From: an uncultured virus (IMG/VR IMGVR_UViG_3300032268_000966)
Taxonomy: Duplodnaviria > Heunggongvirae > Uroviricota > Caudoviricetes
Virus record (IMG/VR): IMGVR_UViG_3300032268_000966
Length of the DNA stretch: 64,000 bases
Direction: 5' to 3' (one strand)
The notes under the pieces are model-generated. The model saw only the letters and a program-made list of their open reading frames with translations, made no database searches and was not told the DNA's origin. Each line of letters opens with the position of its first letter. Within the stretch, counting starts at the first letter, position 1. Positions 1-8,566 of this stretch are shown here, one piece after another. The position numbers and the translations under genes were made by a program.

Positions 1-309
1 GATAATTGGTTTTGATGATGTTCCTTCAGCTAAGATTTGAGCGCCTCTTTCGATACATAAAGCACCTTTTTCACTGATATCAGAAATGATTGTTGTGCCT
101 GGTTGGATAATAAGTTTTGCTCCATCGGTCACATACACATACCCTTTTAATGTCCAAACTTTGTCCGAAGTTAAAGTTGTAGTTGTATTAATGTTTCCTG
201 AAAGAGTGGTTGATGTTGGTATGTTAATTGGTCCGTCTTCGCCACCTCCTAAATTTTTTTCGCATCCAAATAATGATAATGCTAAAATAAGTCCTAATAA
301 TTTTTTCAT
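1..309 (-). CDS. Bacteroidota-type lipoprotein partner of the TonB-dependent receptor (3' end runs off the window)
   Basis: Manual translation from ATG at 309: MKKLLGLILALSLFGCEKNLGGGEDGPINIPTSTTLSGNINTTTTLTSDKVWTLKGYVYVTDGAKLIIQPGTTII... It has a lipobox (LFG-C16) and an ATGA overlap with the receptor stop. Absent from the ORF track because there is no stop in the window. Confidence 0.8.
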   Translation of the reverse strand, partial: MKKLLGLILALSLFGCEKNLGGGEDGPINIPTSTTLSGNINTTTTLTSDKVWTLKGYVYVTDGAKLIIQPGTTIISDISEKGALCIERGAQILAEGTSSKPII

Positions 310-2783
310 AAATTTAAATTTAATGTTAATGAAATTGTTTGCTCGTTATTTGTTTTTATTAGATTTCTGTTTTGTACTTTTTGGTAAAAGATGGATGACT
401 GAGCAAAGACATCACCTATTGCCAATTTTAATTCTCCTTTCGGAAGTTTATGTAAAAAAGTTACATCTAACACATCTCTACTATTTTCGAATATGTCAGG
501 ATAACCTTGAAATCCCACTGCGGATATTCTATCTCCAACTCTGTTATATGTTATATTGAGTGTTTCATTCTTTTTATGAATATTCACACCACTATTTAAC
601 ACGTAGTTTGATTGTCCTTGTAATTGTCTTTTCATACCGTTCACATTTACCTCAGAGTTCATAAGAGAAACGTTTGTGTAAATGTCAAACCAATTGGTTA
701 TTTTTTTACGAACCTCCATTTCAATACCATATAAAATTGCAGAATTTGGGTTAGTGTATGTTAACAGTAAGTTTGATGGTACTGAACCATCGGCAACAAT
801 TTGTTCTATTGGTTTAATAAAGTTTTTCCCAAATAAGGAAACCGATATGTTTTCACCTGACTCTGGATACCATTCGTATTTTAAATCCAAATTATATATG
901 TCAGTTTTTTCTAATTTTGAATTACCTAAAATTTGTGCGTTTCTAACAAAATCGTAATATGCAAAATTTGCAACTTCTCTAAATTCAGGTCTTGATAATG
1001 TCTTACTTATTGAAAATCTATATTTTGTTTTATCCTCATTATATGAAAGATTAAGTGACGGCAAGAAATCCAAATACTGTCTGTTCACATTCACTTTTTG
1101 ACCACTAAAATCTGCGGTTTGAACTTCAAAAATATTATATTCACCCCTAATACCTGTGTTAATTTTCCATTTACCAAATTCGCTTTCATACATTGAATAT
1201 AAAGACCCTAAATCAAAATCGGCGGTATATCTATCGGTATTGTTTGTAATCTCGTCTAACATATCTGTTGATTGATAACGAAATATTCTAGCATTAAATC
1301 CTCTAAATCGTTTTAAATAACCACCACCGACTTTTATTTTACCAATCTCTTTATTAACGTTACCGTTAAAAGAATTTTCATCCATTATACTCCAAAAACG
1401 ATATGTGTCTCTCCAGGCGGTTTGATAAGGTTCGTTAACTCCTAATGATTTTGTAATCGGATTTATTCTATAATCAGGTTGTTCCCTGAACATATAATTG
1501 TATCCAACATTGAAATTAAATGTTTCTATTTTACCGTCTAATTGAGAATTAACAACAATATTATTAATATTGTTTGATGCTGTACTACGAACATTTTGTA
1601 CGTTATCAAAGTTGTCACCGTTACGAGTTAAATATGAATTTTCTGATTGGTAATTAATCAAGGTTTTCCAACTATATCGGTTTTTTCCCAAATATGTTAA
1701 ATTAAGTAATCCATTGGTGGATACTCTTTTTGTAAATAATGTATCTCTATATGAGTAAGCTAATTCTGTTGATGACTGATAATCTTTTCTGTCAATATAA
1801 TTTAAAGTATATGTATTTCGTACAGTAGAACTAAATAAAGAATTAAATTTACCTTTAGTATACCCAAATGAAAGACCCCCATTTAAATTTGGGATTGATT
1901 GAAATGAAGATTCTGATGGTGTATTAATTAATTTAGTAAACGCTCTTTTATCACCATTACTACTAATTCGGTATCGATATGTTGAAGGGAAAGAGGAAGG
2001 GAATTTAGTAGGTTGAACTAACTTAAATTTTTCAAAAGTTGATACTAAACCCCAACCACTCCCCAATGAGATATTAAAAAAATTATCAGATACTTCTTTT
2101 GTTGTTACTTGAATTAATCCTCCACTCCAATCTCCAGGTAAATTTGCAGATGACGATTTTGAGACAATAATATTATCAATTAGAGATGTTGGAATTATGT
2201 CAAAAGAAAATGCTCTTCTGTCTGGTTCAGTTGATGGTAAGGGAGTTTTATTTAAAAATGCTAAATTATACCTATCAGCTAAACCTCTAACCAAAACAAA
2301 TCTATCATTTTGAATTGTTACACCACTAACTCTTTTGAGAGCATCTCCTAAATTTCTATCAGGAGTTTTTTTAATAAATTCGATTGAAATACCATCAGAT
2401 ACTACATTACTGTTTCGTATTGACCTAACAATTGCAATTTCAGTTATTTTTTGTGCTGTTGACCTTACAATGACTTCAGATAATTGAGTATCACTCTCTT
2501 CAAGTATAATGTCTAAAGTTAAATCCGATGTTATGTTAATTTCTTTTAAAAAATTAGAATAACCCATGTACGACGCAGTTATCTTGTATAAACCAGGTTT
2601 AACAGTTACTTTATATTCGGATTTTTCGTTTGAAATAGAGGAGTATGATGTCCCGTCTATGTGTTTGAATATTATGTGAGAAAAATATATGTTTTCGGTT
2701 TTAGATTTTGTAAGACCACTTACATTTATTTGTCCAACAGCTAAGATTGGGATTAATAGTAAAAATAGAAAAAATGATTTCAT
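306..2783 (-). CDS. TonB-dependent outer-membrane receptor
   Basis: 825 aa with signal peptide, N-terminal carboxypeptidase-regulatory-like domain, plug motifs (DALKRVSGV, VLVRGLADRY) and barrel motifs (LPSLNLSY, SRPEFREV, GNSKL, NLDLKYEWY). Confidence 0.92.
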   Translation of the reverse strand: MKSFFLFLLLIPILAVGQINVSGLTKSKTENIYFSHIIFKHIDGTSYSSISNEKSEYKVTVKPGLYKITASYMGYSNFLKEINITSDLTLDIILEESDTQLSEVIVRSTAQKITEIAIVRSIRNSNVVSDGISIEFIKKTPDRNLGDALKRVSGVTIQNDRFVLVRGLADRYNLAFLNKTPLPSTEPDRRAFSFDIIPTSLIDNIIVSKSSSANLPGDWSGGLIQVTTKEVSDNFFNISLGSGWGLVSTFEKFKLVQPTKFPSSFPSTYRYRISSNGDKRAFTKLINTPSESSFQSIPNLNGGLSFGYTKGKFNSLFSSTVRNTYTLNYIDRKDYQSSTELAYSYRDTLFTKRVSTNGLLNLTYLGKNRYSWKTLINYQSENSYLTRNGDNFDNVQNVRSTASNNINNIVVNSQLDGKIETFNFNVGYNYMFREQPDYRINPITKSLGVNEPYQTAWRDTYRFWSIMDENSFNGNVNKEIGKIKVGGGYLKRFRGFNARIFRYQSTDMLDEITNNTDRYTADFDLGSLYSMYESEFGKWKINTGIRGEYNIFEVQTADFSGQKVNVNRQYLDFLPSLNLSYNEDKTKYRFSISKTLSRPEFREVANFAYYDFVRNAQILGNSKLEKTDIYNLDLKYEWYPESGENISVSLFGKNFIKPIEQIVADGSVPSNLLLTYTNPNSAILYGIEMEVRKKITNWFDIYTNVSLMNSEVNVNGMKRQLQGQSNYVLNSGVNIHKKNETLNITYNRVGDRISAVGFQGYPDIFENSRDVLDVTFLHKLPKGELKLAIGDVFAQSSIFYQKVQNRNLIKTNNEQTISLTLNLNL

Positions 2784-2871
2784 AAAGTTATTTAAATTAG
2801 TTCCCTAATAACTATGATACCGTTTCTATAAGTGAATTAACATTATATTATGAAATCATTAAATTAATAAT

Positions 2872-2901
2872 AAAAAAAAAGGTTCACATATCTGTGAACC
2901 T
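2872..2901 (-). terminator. Intrinsic terminator downstream of tmRNA
   Basis: AGGTTCAC-N6-GTGAACCT hairpin followed by a U-tract on the minus strand. Confidence 0.8.
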
Positions 2902-2902
2902 A

Positions 2903-3316
2903 TGGTGGAGGTGGCGGGAATCGAACCCGCGTCTTACAATATTAACATAAACAGACTACACGTTTATTCAGTTAGTTCTCAACTGACAAATAAATGGTTC
3001 CTATTTTGACATCGTAACCAATAACTGTGTCGGGTTCACTTGTGTTGGAGTAGACCCCTGAACGAGACTCCTAATACATCTTCTGGTGGTATTACACCTT
3101 GAGTACTTCTGTTCCTAGGTTATATGTACATCGACCCGAACGTTGTTCTGTACTAATTAAGCACCAACAACAACAGCTTCTCTAGTTAAACCTAAAGCAG
3201 CCATTTTAGCAAAAGTATTGCCGTTTGAATTTTTTCACCGTAGATTTAAGTCATAGATGAATTCTGACTACGTGCCTGCTTACCCTAAGTACTGCAATCA
3301 ATACCTGGACACCCCC
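2903..3316 (-). ncRNA. ssrA: tmRNA (transfer-messenger RNA)
   Basis: 5' GGGGGUG pairs with 3' CACCUCC-ACCA and includes the G3.U alanine determinant. T-arm GCGGG-UUCGAUU-CCCGC; encoded CCA; 414 nt; internal tag ORF at 3222-3157 reads GNTFAKMAALGLTREAVVVGA*. Confidence 0.93.
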
Positions 3317-3336
3317 ATAATTTCAATGAACTGATA

Positions 3337-3354
3337 CAAAGATAAGAATAAATA
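3337..3354 (-). promoter_or_regulatory. Host-type TAnnTTTG element (3337-3344) plus phage TATTTATT motif (3347-3354) upstream of tmRNA
   Basis: Minus strand reads TATTTATTCTTATCTTTG about 20 nt upstream of the tmRNA 5' end. Confidence 0.55.
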
Positions 3355-3390
3355 TCGTAAAACCAAACTGAAAGTGTATTTATTAACAAT

Positions 3391-4431
3391 ATGGCATCAT
3401 TTGAGACATTTATGGCTTTGAGGGATTACGTTAAGGACAAAATCCAAAAATGGGAATTAGAGGATTCTGACCCTGACATTTATCATGTTAGAGAAGATAG
3501 GTCTAACCGTGGGCAAAGCGTTATTAAAATAGGTTTTAATGACGATAAATTTTGGAAAAACGCAGGTTTAGGAGAAGATGATATTTGGTTTATGAAAATG
3601 ATTAACTCACCTTATTCAGATTATGAGTTCATGGATTCGTATAGTGTTACTGATGATTTTAGAAATGGGTATACCATTTTTGGGGAATTAAATGAGGATA
3701 ACATTGAAAAGTTAAAACAAATATCAAGATACATTTTCCCTAAAAAATTTGATTTGGAAAATGAAGAGTTCAGGTCAGACTTTGCAGATAAATTATTAAC
3801 TTCATTCAAAAGTGACACCCAAGATATTATTGACGACTACCAAAACGAAAAAAATAGGGAAATGACGCAAACCGCACAAGAAAGGATTAATAAAGAACTG
3901 GTTGAATATTTTGATGAGTATGGGTTTAACTACATAGCCGATGACGAATTTACAACAACTGTTGCAAATCTTATAATGTTGTATATTAAAGAAAATGCAA
4001 TACATGAACCACTTGCAAAATTTCTACCTAAAATTTTCAGTTCAAATAATAATTCAATAGGTGGATGGCAAGAGAATAGTTATGAATATCAAGATTCTAA
4101 AAATTTTGATAGTGATTCATTCAACAATTATGTCGAACGTAAATTAGATGGAATAATTGAAAAGATTGAAGAGGGATATGACGGAGACTTTAAAATTCAA
4201 GATTATGTCGATATGGTAGATAGAATTAGTAAAAAGTTTGAGGTCGGCAGATGGCATAACTTACCAAAAAAGAAAGACGTTAGATTTTATATTGAAAATT
4301 TTGAAATGAATCCAAATAAGGTTATCGTTAAACTTTCCAGAGCATTACAACAAAGAGAGTTAAAATTAACTGAAGAGAATTTTTATCATCTACTTTATCA
4401 GCCAACATTATTTAATTTGGAAGAAATCTAA
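3391..4431 (+). CDS. hypothetical acidic protein
   Basis: 346-aa ORF preceded by TATTTATT (3377-3384); no recognisable motif. Confidence 0.7.
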   Translation: MASFETFMALRDYVKDKIQKWELEDSDPDIYHVREDRSNRGQSVIKIGFNDDKFWKNAGLGEDDIWFMKMINSPYSDYEFMDSYSVTDDFRNGYTIFGELNEDNIEKLKQISRYIFPKKFDLENEEFRSDFADKLLTSFKSDTQDIIDDYQNEKNREMTQTAQERINKELVEYFDEYGFNYIADDEFTTTVANLIMLYIKENAIHEPLAKFLPKIFSSNNNSIGGWQENSYEYQDSKNFDSDSFNNYVERKLDGIIEKIEEGYDGDFKIQDYVDMVDRISKKFEVGRWHNLPKKKDVRFYIENFEMNPNKVIVKLSRALQQRELKLTEENFYHLLYQPTLFNLEEI

Positions 4432-4451: not shown

Positions 4452-5294
4452 ATGACACAAAATATAGACTTACTAAAGGAAGTTCTTAGCGTTCCTAGTA
4501 AAACATACAAAGAAGACCTTATGGTCGAATTCTTGGTTAATTGGTTGACTGAGAATAACATTGAACACTACGTAGATAAACATAAAAATGTTTATGCAAC
4601 AAAAAAAGAAAATTCTGAATTACCAGAAAATTTCCATTTCCCATGTGTGATTGCCCATACAGATACAGTTCATGAGTTAGACACCATTCTTATTCGTGAG
4701 GAACAATTATATAATGCTCAAGGTCAGATTAAAGACTCCCTGAAAGCATATAATGAACACGGATTACCAACAGGTATTGGTGGAGACGACAAATGTGGTG
4801 TATTCGCTTGTTTAACATTACTTAAAGAATTACCGTACTTAAAGGCATCATTTTTTGTTTCTGAAGAAACAGGATGTCATGGTTCAAAAAAAGCAGATGA
4901 ATCTTTCTTTGAAAATGTTGGTTACGGAATTCAATTTGACGCACCAGAAAACTGGATGATTACAGAAAAATGTTTTGGTCAAGTATTGTTTGACAGAGAT
5001 AGTGAATTCTTTGAAAAGATTGATAAAGTTTTAACTGAAGGTATGGTTAATGAAGACATGCAATACATGGTTCACCCATATACCGATGTATATGCTTTGA
5101 GAAATAAATTTAGTTTCTCATGTATTAATTTTTCAATTGGATATTACAATTATCACACTAAAAATGAATACGTTGTAATTGAAGATGTTTTTAATGGAAT
5201 AGAAATGGGTAGAAAAATGATTTCTGAATTAGGTTATAAATTACACTACAAAGAATTAGTAAAATATGACCCAATGCAAAGATATGTTATATAA
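4452..5294 (+). CDS. M20/M28/M42-type zinc peptidase
   Basis: Metal-ligand motifs AHTDTV, GGDDKCG, SEETG and C-terminal YHT..E. Confidence 0.85.
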   Translation: MTQNIDLLKEVLSVPSKTYKEDLMVEFLVNWLTENNIEHYVDKHKNVYATKKENSELPENFHFPCVIAHTDTVHELDTILIREEQLYNAQGQIKDSLKAYNEHGLPTGIGGDDKCGVFACLTLLKELPYLKASFFVSEETGCHGSKKADESFFENVGYGIQFDAPENWMITEKCFGQVLFDRDSEFFEKIDKVLTEGMVNEDMQYMVHPYTDVYALRNKFSFSCINFSIGYYNYHTKNEYVVIEDVFNGIEMGRKMISELGYKLHYKELVKYDPMQRYVI

Positions 5295-5955
5295 AATTTT
5301 CTAACTTATCAATGTGACGTTTAACCATCGGGTGGTCTTGAATATCCTCATATTCGGCCCCCGATTTTTTTATTTCTTTAATACCGTTAACAATTTGAGA
5401 TAAATGTCCTCTAACCATTCTTGACGCAGATGGGTAATTCTGAATGTAGTGGGATAGTGAAAATAATCTTGATGCAACATCAATTGGTATACCTAATTTA
5501 ATTACAATTTTGGCAACCATATTTTTGGCAAATTGGTCGGCGTCTAACTCCATTTCCCAGTATTGGTCTGCGAGTGACTCAAAATCTTCCAAATCAAATT
5601 CCGTTAATGGGTTTGGCATTTTAATGTCACGAATCTGATGTTCGTGTCTAATTTCGTGAAATACGGTGTACAGGAAATCACCTATGGTTGACATTTGAGC
5701 TGGCGCACAAATTATTATTTGGTCTTTAGTTCTAACCCCTGAAAATCCAGCAAAACAAGAGTTAAGGAATTTAATATTGAGGTTGTTCTTTTTGATATAG
5801 TCAGAAACAAATTTACCAATTACTGGTAATTTCTCCATTAATTCTTTTGGAAATTGATATTTGAATTGGTCCATCAATCTATCAAGATTTGATTGCAACT
5901 GAGGTGCATCATCTTCAAGGGACTCTTTTATTATCTTTCTAATCAAATCTTTCAT
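5287..5955 (-). CDS. HEXXH zincin-like metalloprotein, possibly head-packaged
   Basis: HEIRHEHQ followed by ELDAD; N-terminal MKDLIRKIIKES motif; TATTTATA at 5960-5967 (minus strand). Confidence 0.65.
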   Translation of the reverse strand: MKDLIRKIIKESLEDDAPQLQSNLDRLMDQFKYQFPKELMEKLPVIGKFVSDYIKKNNLNIKFLNSCFAGFSGVRTKDQIIICAPAQMSTIGDFLYTVFHEIRHEHQIRDIKMPNPLTEFDLEDFESLADQYWEMELDADQFAKNMVAKIVIKLGIPIDVASRLFSLSHYIQNYPSASRMVRGHLSQIVNGIKEIKKSGAEYEDIQDHPMVKRHIDKLENFI

Positions 5956-5999: not shown

Positions 6000-8012
6000 T
6001 TATCGTCCTTTTTTAACAACCTTAACCTCGTCGTTCTCAACTTTGATGTTGTAAGTTTTACCCTCAATCATCTTACCTGTTAGAACTTCTTCAGATAACA
6101 AATCCTCAACTTTGTCTTGGATTGCTCTCTTAAGTGGTCTCGCTCCGTACATCTCGTCAAATCCAATCTTAGCCAAATAATCAACTAAAGTGTCATCAAA
6201 GTTTAAAGTGTACTTCATGTCCTTAAGACGTTTACCTAATTTCGACAATTCAATCACAGTGATTTTCTTGATGTCCTCAGGAGTTAATGAGTTGAATACA
6301 ATTGTATCATCGATACGATTGATGAATTCAGGAGAAAAGAATTTCTTCATTTCTTTCATTAACACTTCTTTTTTGGCCTCCTCGTTAGCATAAGGACTAT
6401 TTGAGAAACCGATACCTGTACCAAAGTCTTGTAACTTCTTTACACCTAAGTTTGAAGTTAAGATGATTAAGGTATTCTTGAAATTAATCTTTCTACCTAA
6501 ACTATCTGTAACGTGACCGTCATCCAAGATTTGAAGTAAGATGGTAAACACATCTTTGTGAGCTTTCTCCACCTCGTCAAACAAGATAACTGAATATGGT
6601 TTGTTCTTAACTTTTTCAGTCAATAAACCACCTTCTTCGTATCCAACATAACCTGGAGGAGCTCCAACCAATTTAGAGACACTGTGTTTCTCTTGGTACT
6701 CAGACATATCCACACGGATAAGTGAATCTTCAGAACCAAACATCTCTTTCGCCAATTGCTTAGCTAAGTGAGTTTTACCAACACCAGTTGAACCTAAGAA
6801 CACAAATGAACCAATCGGACGGTTCGGGTCCTTAATACCCAAACGGTTTCTCTTGATAGATTTTGCAATCTTAACAACCGCAGCATCCTGACCAATTACT
6901 TTACCGATTAACTCCTTATCCAAGTTTAATAATGCCTTAGTGTCATCAACACTCATCTTATTTACAGGGATTTTAACCATGTTTGAAACAACTTCATAAA
7001 CATTATCCAATGAGATGATTTGTTTATTTTCCGACATAGATTCTTCAAACTTACGTTTTTCAACGTCTAATTTGTCTAACACTTTTTTCTCCTTGTCTCT
7101 TAACTGAGCGGCCTGTTCGTAGTTTTGTTTTTTAACTACGTCCATCTTTTGTTGTCTGATGTCTGCAGCGGTTTTCTTCAAAAGTTCAATAGATTCAGGA
7201 ACTTTAAGTTCGGTTTGCATACGAGCTCCAACCTCATCCAAGATATCAAATGCCTTATCAGGAAACTCACGGTCTGTGATGTAACGGTCAGCTAATTTAA
7301 CACAAGCCTCAATTACTTCATCACTATAAGTTACCTTGTGATAAGACTCATACTTATCACGGATATTTTTAAGGATTTGGATTGTCTCATCAACAGTCGA
7401 TGCGTCAACAACCACTTTTTGGAATCTACGCTCTAACGCTCCGTCCTTCTCGATATTTTTACGGAACTCATCAAGAGTTGTTGCTCCAATGATTTGAATC
7501 TCACCACGAGATAATGCTGGTTTAAAAATGTTAGAACCGTCCATTGAACCTGAAGAATTACCCGACCCAACCAAAGTGTGGACCTCATCAATAAACACAA
7601 TGATATGTGGATTTGCGGTAAGTTCTTCAATGATAACTTTCATTCTTTCTTCAAATTGTCCACGGTATTTTGTTCCTGCGACAACTGAAGTTAAGTCAAG
7701 ATTGACTAATCTTTTGTCCACTAAATTACGAGGACAATCTCCATTAACAATCTTCATTGCTAATCCTTCAACAATTGCGGTCTTACCACAACCAGGTTCA
7801 CCAATGATAATTGGATTGTTTTTCTTTCTACGAGATAAAATCTGAGCAATTCTTAAAATCTCTTTGTCACGACCAATAACAGGGTCTAACTTACCTTCTT
7901 CTGCAAGTTTATTTAAGTCTCGACTAAAGTTGTCTAAAACAGGAGTACTACTATCAGATTGCTTTTGTTTTTTACTCATCATTTTTTCATCGTCGTCCAT
8001 CAAGTCATTCAT
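6000..8012 (-). CDS. clpC: ClpC-type Hsp100 AAA+ ATPase lacking the N-terminal Clp-repeat domain
   Basis: Walker A motifs GEPGCGKT and GSTGVGKT; pore loops KYRG and GYVG; UVR-type M-domain (QNYEQAAQLRD); ClpP-docking IGF loop; only ~25 aa precede LDNFSRDL. Confidence 0.9.
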   Translation of the reverse strand: MNDLMDDDEKMMSKKQKQSDSSTPVLDNFSRDLNKLAEEGKLDPVIGRDKEILRIAQILSRRKKNNPIIIGEPGCGKTAIVEGLAMKIVNGDCPRNLVDKRLVNLDLTSVVAGTKYRGQFEERMKVIIEELTANPHIIVFIDEVHTLVGSGNSSGSMDGSNIFKPALSRGEIQIIGATTLDEFRKNIEKDGALERRFQKVVVDASTVDETIQILKNIRDKYESYHKVTYSDEVIEACVKLADRYITDREFPDKAFDILDEVGARMQTELKVPESIELLKKTAADIRQQKMDVVKKQNYEQAAQLRDKEKKVLDKLDVEKRKFEESMSENKQIISLDNVYEVVSNMVKIPVNKMSVDDTKALLNLDKELIGKVIGQDAAVVKIAKSIKRNRLGIKDPNRPIGSFVFLGSTGVGKTHLAKQLAKEMFGSEDSLIRVDMSEYQEKHSVSKLVGAPPGYVGYEEGGLLTEKVKNKPYSVILFDEVEKAHKDVFTILLQILDDGHVTDSLGRKINFKNTLIILTSNLGVKKLQDFGTGIGFSNSPYANEEAKKEVLMKEMKKFFSPEFINRIDDTIVFNSLTPEDIKKITVIELSKLGKRLKDMKYTLNFDDTLVDYLAKIGFDEMYGARPLKRAIQDKVEDLLSEEVLTGKMIEGKTYNIKVENDEVKVVKKGR

Positions 8013-8185: not shown

Positions 8186-8566
8186 ATGTTTGGAAACAGA
8201 AGAAATTACAACGACATCTTTAGAGCATTCGATGAAATGTTTGCTCAATTCGATTTAACTCAAGGTGAGTGGAAATCAAAAACTAGAGTATCTGATGATG
8301 GTACTATGAAAGTAACAACTTATTATAGAGGAGGAGACTCTTCAAAATCAGAAGAAGGAATCGACAGATTAAAATATCAACTTAACATGGCGATTGAAAA
8401 TGAAGATTTTGAAACTGCAGTTAAACTTAGAGACCAAATCAAAAATTTTGAGTCAAACCAAAAAGATATTGATAAACTTGAATTGGAGTTAAAAAAATCA
8501 ATTGAAGAACAAGACTTTGAAAAATCAATTGAAATTAGAGACCAATTGAAAAAATTGAAAATGTAA
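8186..8566 (+). CDS. Double UVR (UvrB/C motif) protein, putative ClpC adaptor
   Basis: Two UVR motifs, AIENEDFETAVKLRDQI and SIEEQDFEKSIEIRDQL; divergent from clpC. Confidence 0.8.
   Translation: MFGNRRNYNDIFRAFDEMFAQFDLTQGEWKSKTRVSDDGTMKVTTYYRGGDSSKSEEGIDRLKYQLNMAIENEDFETAVKLRDQIKNFESNQKDIDKLELELKKSIEEQDFEKSIEIRDQLKKLKM

Follow-up and report, generated by a model that had tools for sequence, protein, structure and literature searches.

The tmRNA gene and the genes around it

The stretch of DNA analyzed here (the window, 64,000 nucleotides) comprises bases 62001–126000 of a 128,408-base virus record that is 43% complete. The window encodes a T4-like terminase, a portal, a prohead protease and a Gp23 capsid protein, the record carries 22 tRNAs, and complete relatives are 309–326 kb in length. 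A one-piece tmRNA gene (ssrA) of 414 nt lies at 2903..3316 on the minus strand and matches the Rfam covariance model RF00023 over its full length (model positions 1–374), with 95.6 bits against a gathering cut-off of 47. Its acceptor stem, as read from the letters, holds the alanine determinants G3.U70, A73 and an encoded CCA; in 45 relatives collected blind to the tag, G3.U70 and A73 are present in all 45 and CCA is encoded in 33. The gene also contains a conserved tag frame with its resume context and a stop codon. Directly past the CCA end, a hairpin followed by a U run (2876–2901) is likely an intrinsic terminator.

The program ARAGORN reported no tmRNA in the window and missed this gene in the genome even with a lowered threshold. 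Among 30 family loci, it found the gene in 22 and missed it in 8, so phage surveys built on ARAGORN likely undercount tmRNAs of this family. The earlier note on this DNA had proposed ARAGORN or Infernal as a check of the tag call; the check succeeded with the full-length Rfam match and with the frame that ARAGORN chose in 22 relatives, and failed with ARAGORN on the window itself. In a complete 326-kb relative, the tmRNA (G002:159506-159882) was missed by the Rfam genome search and found by blastn together with the tag pattern. Two other loci, L374 and L375 (G040:45134-45531 and G029:17336-17733), have a mostly rewritten acceptor stem (GGGCCCG/CGGGUCC) with compensatory changes, in which G3.U70 is still kept. 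As well, a group I intron (RF00028, 67.8 bits) splits the T-loop of a related phage tmRNA just past GGGTT at L124:720-923(+), L157:1-204(-) and L275:1-204(-), which are apparently one sequence. T-loop introns of tmRNA are known from bacteria, and the available text of PMC11915505 makes no mention of phage cases.

Sequence from part of 2700–3500 occurs in 18 RNA runs. In all four runs examined, from four lake studies, contigs cover about 2905–3307 and the adjacent bins are empty; these runs were chosen for containing 2700–3500 sequence, and their contigs are unstranded, have no defined ends and include relatives. Contig depth over the tmRNA ranges from tens to over a thousand, and that over the neighboring genes is at most 13. 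The complete tag frame is covered by one RNA contig that differs from it at two places, and codon 10 is not among the differences listed. The near-identical tmRNA contigs in four lake metatranscriptomes are consistent with transcription of the tmRNA gene. In two RNA runs, loose ends at 3218 come from contigs of tmRNAs that are more distant and read on in frame as G-N-V-Y-N-N-M-E, which suggests that the tag family extends past the sampled clade.

A promoter-like octamer, TATCTTTG, stands 21 nt upstream of the tmRNA at 3337..3344 on the minus strand and is a likely Bacteroidota-type -7 promoter element. The same octamer also precedes the genes for a peptidase (4440) and ClpC (8154), and 12 of its 31 copies are intergenic in a genome of which 8.8% is intergenic. 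In its general form, TAnnTTTG shows no enrichment across the window (114 found, 105 expected), and the skew to intergenic DNA is seen only in the TATCTTTG form. Beside the tmRNA, an intact TonB-dependent receptor gene (306-2783, minus strand) adjoins a lipoprotein-like gene just before the window. All six plasmid records covering at least 80% of the receptor come from Bacteroidota genera; a genome-contig search confirmed no relative of it, and named homologues are uninformative on the host. The phage host probably belongs to Bacteroidota, because of these plasmid matches, the intergenic TATCTTTG octamer and a Gly resume codon as in Bacteroides.

Two conserved neighbors of the tmRNA are a peptidase of the M20/M25/M40 family at 4452..5294 on the plus strand (PF01546, 25.0 bits, cut-off 24.6) and a ClpC-type AAA+ unfoldase at 6000..8012 on the minus strand, 2.7 kb from the tmRNA. 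The latter aligns with Staphylococcus aureus and Bacillus subtilis ClpC from residue ~145 and has a GIGF loop at the ClpP-docking position. It shares with the ClpC–ClpP systems of these bacteria (PDB 3j3s, 6em8) two AAA+ modules, a UVR middle domain and the position of the ClpP-docking loop, but lacks their N-terminal adaptor-binding domain. Of 80 related loci, 77 carry ClpC, the three misses being cut contigs, and in all 70 loci whose ClpC start is readable there is no space for an N-domain; the tag is present in 72, and nearly all of the misses are cut contigs. A protein with the UvrB/C motif (8186..8566, plus strand; PF02151, two stretches) is a candidate ClpC partner. Between the M20 peptidase and clpC, a 222-aa ORF (5287-5955, minus strand) with an HExxH motif (HEIRH) is a possible zinc peptidase and has no match in Pfam. 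ClpP was found in five of five records, so that the tag gene is linked to an unfoldase and a protease; the copy in the present phage (G000:39461-40141, minus strand; PF00574, 195 bits) lies outside the window, about 25 kb from the tmRNA. SmpB was found in one of the five records, the complete 309-kb relative L200 (G003:23555-23968); the four other records tested have no match, including the 43%-complete record that holds the window.

Reading frame and conservation of the tag

The tag reading frame lies at 3157..3222 on the minus strand and encodes GNTFAKMAALGLTREAVVVGA, with 21 codons followed by TAA. The resume codon GGC (3222-3220) is at tmRNA position 95, an Ala-Ala pair occupies 3201-3196, TTA 3195-3193 and the stop codon TAA 3159-3157. 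Codon-by-codon reading gave the same frame, GGC AAT ACT and so on for 21 residues, as the earlier note had written. Upstream of the tag, bases 3223..3227 (minus strand) contain the frame-setting positions, a pyrimidine at -5 and an invariant A at -4, which are the equivalent of E. coli U85/A86. All 56 distinct DNAs from relatives have A at -4 and a pyrimidine at -5. In E. coli, A86, corresponding to A(-4), sets the tmRNA frame, and U85C is tolerated (PMC2481249).

The stop is codon 22 in all 56 distinct DNAs. Over codons 9–21 the third positions have an entropy of 0.94 against 0.61 and 0.63 at the others, and G11, L12 and E15 are maintained via synonymous changes. ARAGORN called the same frame in 22 of 22 family calls, 17 of them from the same Gly and five from a later in-frame Ala, and the resume position, 91–97 in the family, agrees with 96–97 in ten bacterial-type tmRNAs with 9-residue tags. 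The resume codon, which had been proposed by analogy alone, is now backed by the invariant A(-4), the synonymous variation and the ARAGORN calls, and the frame and resume codon of the window tag are supported on these comparisons. Use of another frame deserves hardly any credence: in the window, the +1 frame has a GCA start at 3221, an A at -4 and a stop after nine codons, which would yield a 9-residue tag, but among relatives the +1 ORF can be anything between 6 and 49 codons long and A stands at -5, and it is frame 0 that shows the fixed stop and the synonymous variation. Alternative tag frames were rejected on this scatter in +1 ORF length and on the unanimous ARAGORN choice of frame 0.

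The tag-blind sample consisted of 80 loci chosen by the neighboring peptidase (at least 75% identity), of which 50 records, mostly the longer ones, were searched with RF00023; 45 passed the cut-off, and the tag is also carried by four of the five records below it. All 45 tag-blind tmRNAs have homologous tags, with 21 residues in 38 and 22 residues in seven. A pattern over codons 1–8 only gave 83 viral and 116 metagenome matches, of which 69 and 76 are family members; the remaining 14 viral and 40 metagenome matches are unrelated, apart from one member cut by a contig end, and one of the unrelated matches, set in a non-tmRNA context, stops after ten residues. Of 15 family loci put to Rfam, 13 were confirmed as tmRNA, with one miss interrupted by an intron and one unexplained, and the final family counts combine the tag pattern with Rfam checks. 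The tag pattern had no match in 185,579 prokaryote genomes. Pooling gave 88 distinct DNAs and 49 distinct tags, which are not independent events since the collections share members and include repeated samples.

K6 and G11 are invariant in all 45 tag-blind tags, and the N-terminal half is conserved as F/L4, K6, M/L7 and L10-G11-L12. Among the 49 distinct tags, the C-terminal residue is Ala in 46 and Ile in three and is charged in none, and Val occupies -4 in 41 and -3 in 41. At the second-last position, Val occurs in 14, Gly in 12, Ala in 11, Thr in six, Glu in three and Lys in three. Ala-Ala ends just 11 of the 49; the window tag ends in Gly-Ala. Residues 11–21 are conserved among relatives with synonymous changes, which answers in the affirmative whether the extension is kept at the amino-acid level, an alignment that the earlier note had asked for. 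The 21-residue tag is a conserved trait of the whole jumbo-phage clade. In the phage's own proteins (155 ORFs), no internal or C-terminal match to a tag-like motif was found. An amphipathic helix in residues 2–12 was also considered and found unsupported, as 13–34% of shuffles matched the helical moment in the five tags tested.

Codon 10, hairpins and the origin of the long tag

The Bacteroides-type tmRNA tag has nine encoded residues, GETNYALAA (bioRxiv 10.1101/2025.03.18.644028). The two types are alike in a tRNA-like domain with G3.U70, A73 and CCA, in a Gly resume codon at about position 95 after Y-A-R-N-N, in a stop codon held by a hairpin with the same closing stem, and in a nonpolar C-terminus. 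The phage tag differs from the Bacteroides type in having 21 rather than nine encoded residues, a Gly-Ala rather than an Ala-Ala end, a K6/G11 core, an acidic residue at -7 and likely an extra hairpin, and in being encoded by a phage. The difference from the 9-residue tag, with the Gly start in common, had been stated correctly in the earlier note; the explanation given there was that a TAA-to-TTA change at codon 10 had extended a host-type ...AA tag and buried the host degron.

Codon 10 (3193..3195, minus strand) is TTA for Leu in the window and is an ordinary conserved aliphatic position. Across 88 distinct DNAs it is TTA in 40, CTT in 16, CTC in 13, ATC in five, GTA in five, GTT in four, CTA in three and TTG in two, eight codons that always specify Leu, Ile or Val. 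No stop at codon 10 occurs in 69 viral family loci, 75 complete metagenome family loci or 45 tag-blind Rfam matches, and a metagenome scan requiring TAA or TAG at this codon gave no match, as against 116 without the stop requirement. TTA is indeed one base from TAA, but this nearness is no more than chance, because 60% of the Leu codons in the genome's ORFs are TTA, and a single change would turn 27% of all codons into TAA.

The stop codon itself lies in the loop of a predicted hairpin (3142..3171, minus strand), the equivalent of H5, on the evidence of folds and covariation. At least nine predicted pairs span the stop in 32 of 35 distinct tmRNAs, and a perfect five-pair closing stem occurs in 49 of 88 DNAs, compared with 11% with shuffled flanks. 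The closing stem takes the compensatory forms CUGCU/AGUAG, GUGCU/AGUAC (the window), CUGCG/CGUAG, CUGCC/GGUAG and CUAUC/GAUAG. The form CUGCU/AGUAG is found unchanged in eight of the 88 phage DNAs and closes the stop loop in three of four bacterial-type tmRNAs folded; the 25 bacterial-type tmRNAs came from a pattern that presupposed a short ...AA tag and so show context, not frequency. Because the stem of the stop hairpin matches that of bacterial-type tmRNAs, the tag end is likely homologous to the end of the host tag, and the added residues would have been gained internally, past the resume codon but ahead of the stop hairpin.

A further hairpin is tentatively predicted within the tag frame, over codons 6–17 (3172..3205, minus strand). 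It has a z of -3.3 in the window, and in 65 distinct frames 79.8% of cells are paired, a value reached in none of 500 shuffles, with slid controls at 31–58%. It is kept tentative because RNAalifold on the 66-nt frame alone gave no pairs in the consensus. The RF00023 alignment places its stop hairpin on this internal hairpin, over codons 8–16, with low posterior probability and with the loop on codons 11–13.

A lengthening of a 9-residue tag at codon 10 is very improbable on these grounds. In its favor, the window has Ala-Ala at residues 8–9 followed by TTA, Ala-Ala is the commonest state at these positions (25 of 49 distinct tags), the first nine residues loosely resemble a host-type tag, and Rfam put its stop hairpin over codons 8–16. 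Against this, the family has no stop at codon 10 and uses eight codons for three residues there, TTA is the default Leu codon, and Ala-Ala is found at residues 8–9 in 15 of the 45 tag-blind tags and missing from the other 30, which have SA, AT, AL or SV; moreover, the host-like stop stem encloses codon 22, and the Rfam stop loop falls on codons 11–13, not on codon 10. Since the 21-residue frame is common to the relatives, it is not a recent slip of a stop codon; recent read-through is ruled out, as relatives keep no stop at codon 10 and the supposed added part, residues 11–21, is conserved. The idea of a buried degron is not supported either, as the real stop lies in a covarying bacterial-type hairpin and a nonpolar C-terminus stays free. 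A read-through origin far back, at the root of the clade, is still conceivable, given that the Rfam stop hairpin was aligned with the internal one.

Possible readers of the tag and meaning for the phage

Several phages carry tmRNAs with tags unlike those of their hosts. Mycobacterium phage Bxz1 has a 25-aa tag, phage GenevaB15 a tag of 12–13 aa ending in VGA, and phage G a 13-aa tag ending in VA together with its own ClpP and ClpX (PMC12484599). All three resemble the present case in that the tmRNA is borne by a phage, the tag is lengthened or altered, and its nonpolar end is not Ala-Ala; phage G also pairs the tmRNA with its own Clp genes. They differ in that their tag sequences are unrelated, whereas the present tags, at least 49 in number, form a clade-wide family linked to a ClpC without N-terminal domain; Bxz1 has no Clp genes, with neither a ClpC-type ATPase nor ClpP. 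Other phage tmRNAs have unrelated inferred tags of 43 aa (L013:599-992, minus strand), 41 aa (L407, G053:19367-19778), 38 aa (L018:599-988, minus strand) and 21 aa (L004:599-924, minus strand). The complete 90-kb phage with the 41-aa tag (G053) has neither a ClpC-type ATPase nor ClpP, and the L004 record contains a 649-aa ClpC-like frame. Within the phage collection, the closest ClpC belongs to a 635-kb phage in which no tmRNA scored above the Rfam cut-off.

Previous studies reported tmRNA and SmpB in huge phages, annotated via ARAGORN (PMC7162821), a list of phage tmRNAs (PMC4131195), tmRNA in 402 of 18,146 phage genomes (PMC9004378) and a commonest tag length of 10 aa (PMC11915505). The present tag family was unmatched in the literature searched, including the supplement of PMC11915505; the flat file of the tmRNA database and the huge-phage supplements may hold such genes. 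The phage tmRNA of the window is genuine and its long tag is common to the clade; longer or altered tags are already known from other phages.

The phage tmRNA likely frees stalled ribosomes during infection and adds its long tag to their products, being presumably charged with alanine and acting with host SmpB, a partner suggested by the finding of SmpB in just one of five records. The free nonpolar C-terminus would still direct the product to Clp-type proteolysis, with the last three or four residues (V-V-G-A in the window) likely serving as a terminal degron that is read less strictly than the host Ala-Ala. E. coli ClpX requires the terminal Ala-Ala and a free carboxylate, and KM rises if either Ala is changed (PMC7652416); ssrA tags are targets of ClpXP, ClpAP and Lon, and natural tags have 8–35 aa (PMC8012679). 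By analogy, host ClpXP may read the phage tags poorly, because only 11 of 49 end in Ala-Ala and a change of the second-last Ala raises KM. Host proteases and the phage ClpC with ClpP may both act on the tag, and the degradation pathway is probably not exclusive to phage enzymes. A working, non-exclusive terminal degron for Clp-type proteolysis is the reading we favor, with some reserve. The invariance of K6 and G11 is left unexplained by a plain terminal degron and fits a second reader of the first half of the tag.

Such a reader is central to a narrower alternative, which we regard as possible and still rather unlikely, namely that the tag is tuned to the phage ClpC and ClpP, that host ClpXP reads it poorly, and that the N-terminal half, F/L4, K6, M/L7 and L10-G11-L12, would be the recognition site. 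This would agree with the near-constant company of tag (72/80 loci), ClpC (77/80) and ClpP (5/5 records), with K6 and G11 staying invariant while the second-last residue drifts, with the common octamer TATCTTTG before the tmRNA, peptidase and clpC genes, and with the absence of the tag pattern from the prokaryote genomes. Gene linkage also makes plausible the routing to the phage ClpC that the earlier note had proposed. However, the loci were picked via a neighboring gene at no less than 75% identity, so the linkage of tag and ClpC may be shared ancestry, and part of the tag conservation may be RNA pairing. On a quick, unrooted ClpC tree of 53 distinct tag-bearing rows, tag types are interleaved and do not track the unfoldase lineage; two separate clades of ClpC carry the 22-aa type, and ClpCs that are nearly identical have different tag types. 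Given this exchange of tag types between ClpC lineages and the long tags of phages that lack both ClpC and ClpP, a pathway private to the phage is no more than possible. Rescue without destruction, in which the tag is a weak degron and the products persist or are slowly trimmed by peptidases, seems to us improbable. Of the 49 distinct tags, 38 have a residue other than Ala (Gly, Val, Thr, Lys or Glu) second from the end, the Ala-Ala end is important for ClpXP (PMC7652416), and two peptidase-like genes beside the tmRNA would suit slow trimming; but the end is nonpolar in 49 of 49 tags and Ala in 46, where a charged end would ease escape, and tag length and core are strongly conserved.

A more elaborate proposal, to which we assign a low probability, is that this clade of ~300-kb Bacteroidota phages might run its own quality-control circuit, in which the phage tmRNA would compete with that of the host. 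In the same doubtful vein, the tag would have two parts, with the K6/G11 core read by the adaptor-free ClpC–ClpP, and the fate of stalled products would move from host to phage. The role of phage tmRNAs is largely unexamined in the literature, and the present clade provides a test case, with 49 natural tag variants in which the core is invariant and the second-last residue drifts, and with a linked ClpC without N-terminal domain together with ClpP. The native Bacteroides tag has been reported to be too strong for engineering. If the phage enzymes prove not selective, the tag would be an ordinary extension of known tag diversity. If they read the tag selectively, the phage would run a tag-and-degrade pathway of its own, with a possible tunable degron for Bacteroides engineering, and the circuit, if true, would supply an orthogonal degron–protease pair for Bacteroidota.
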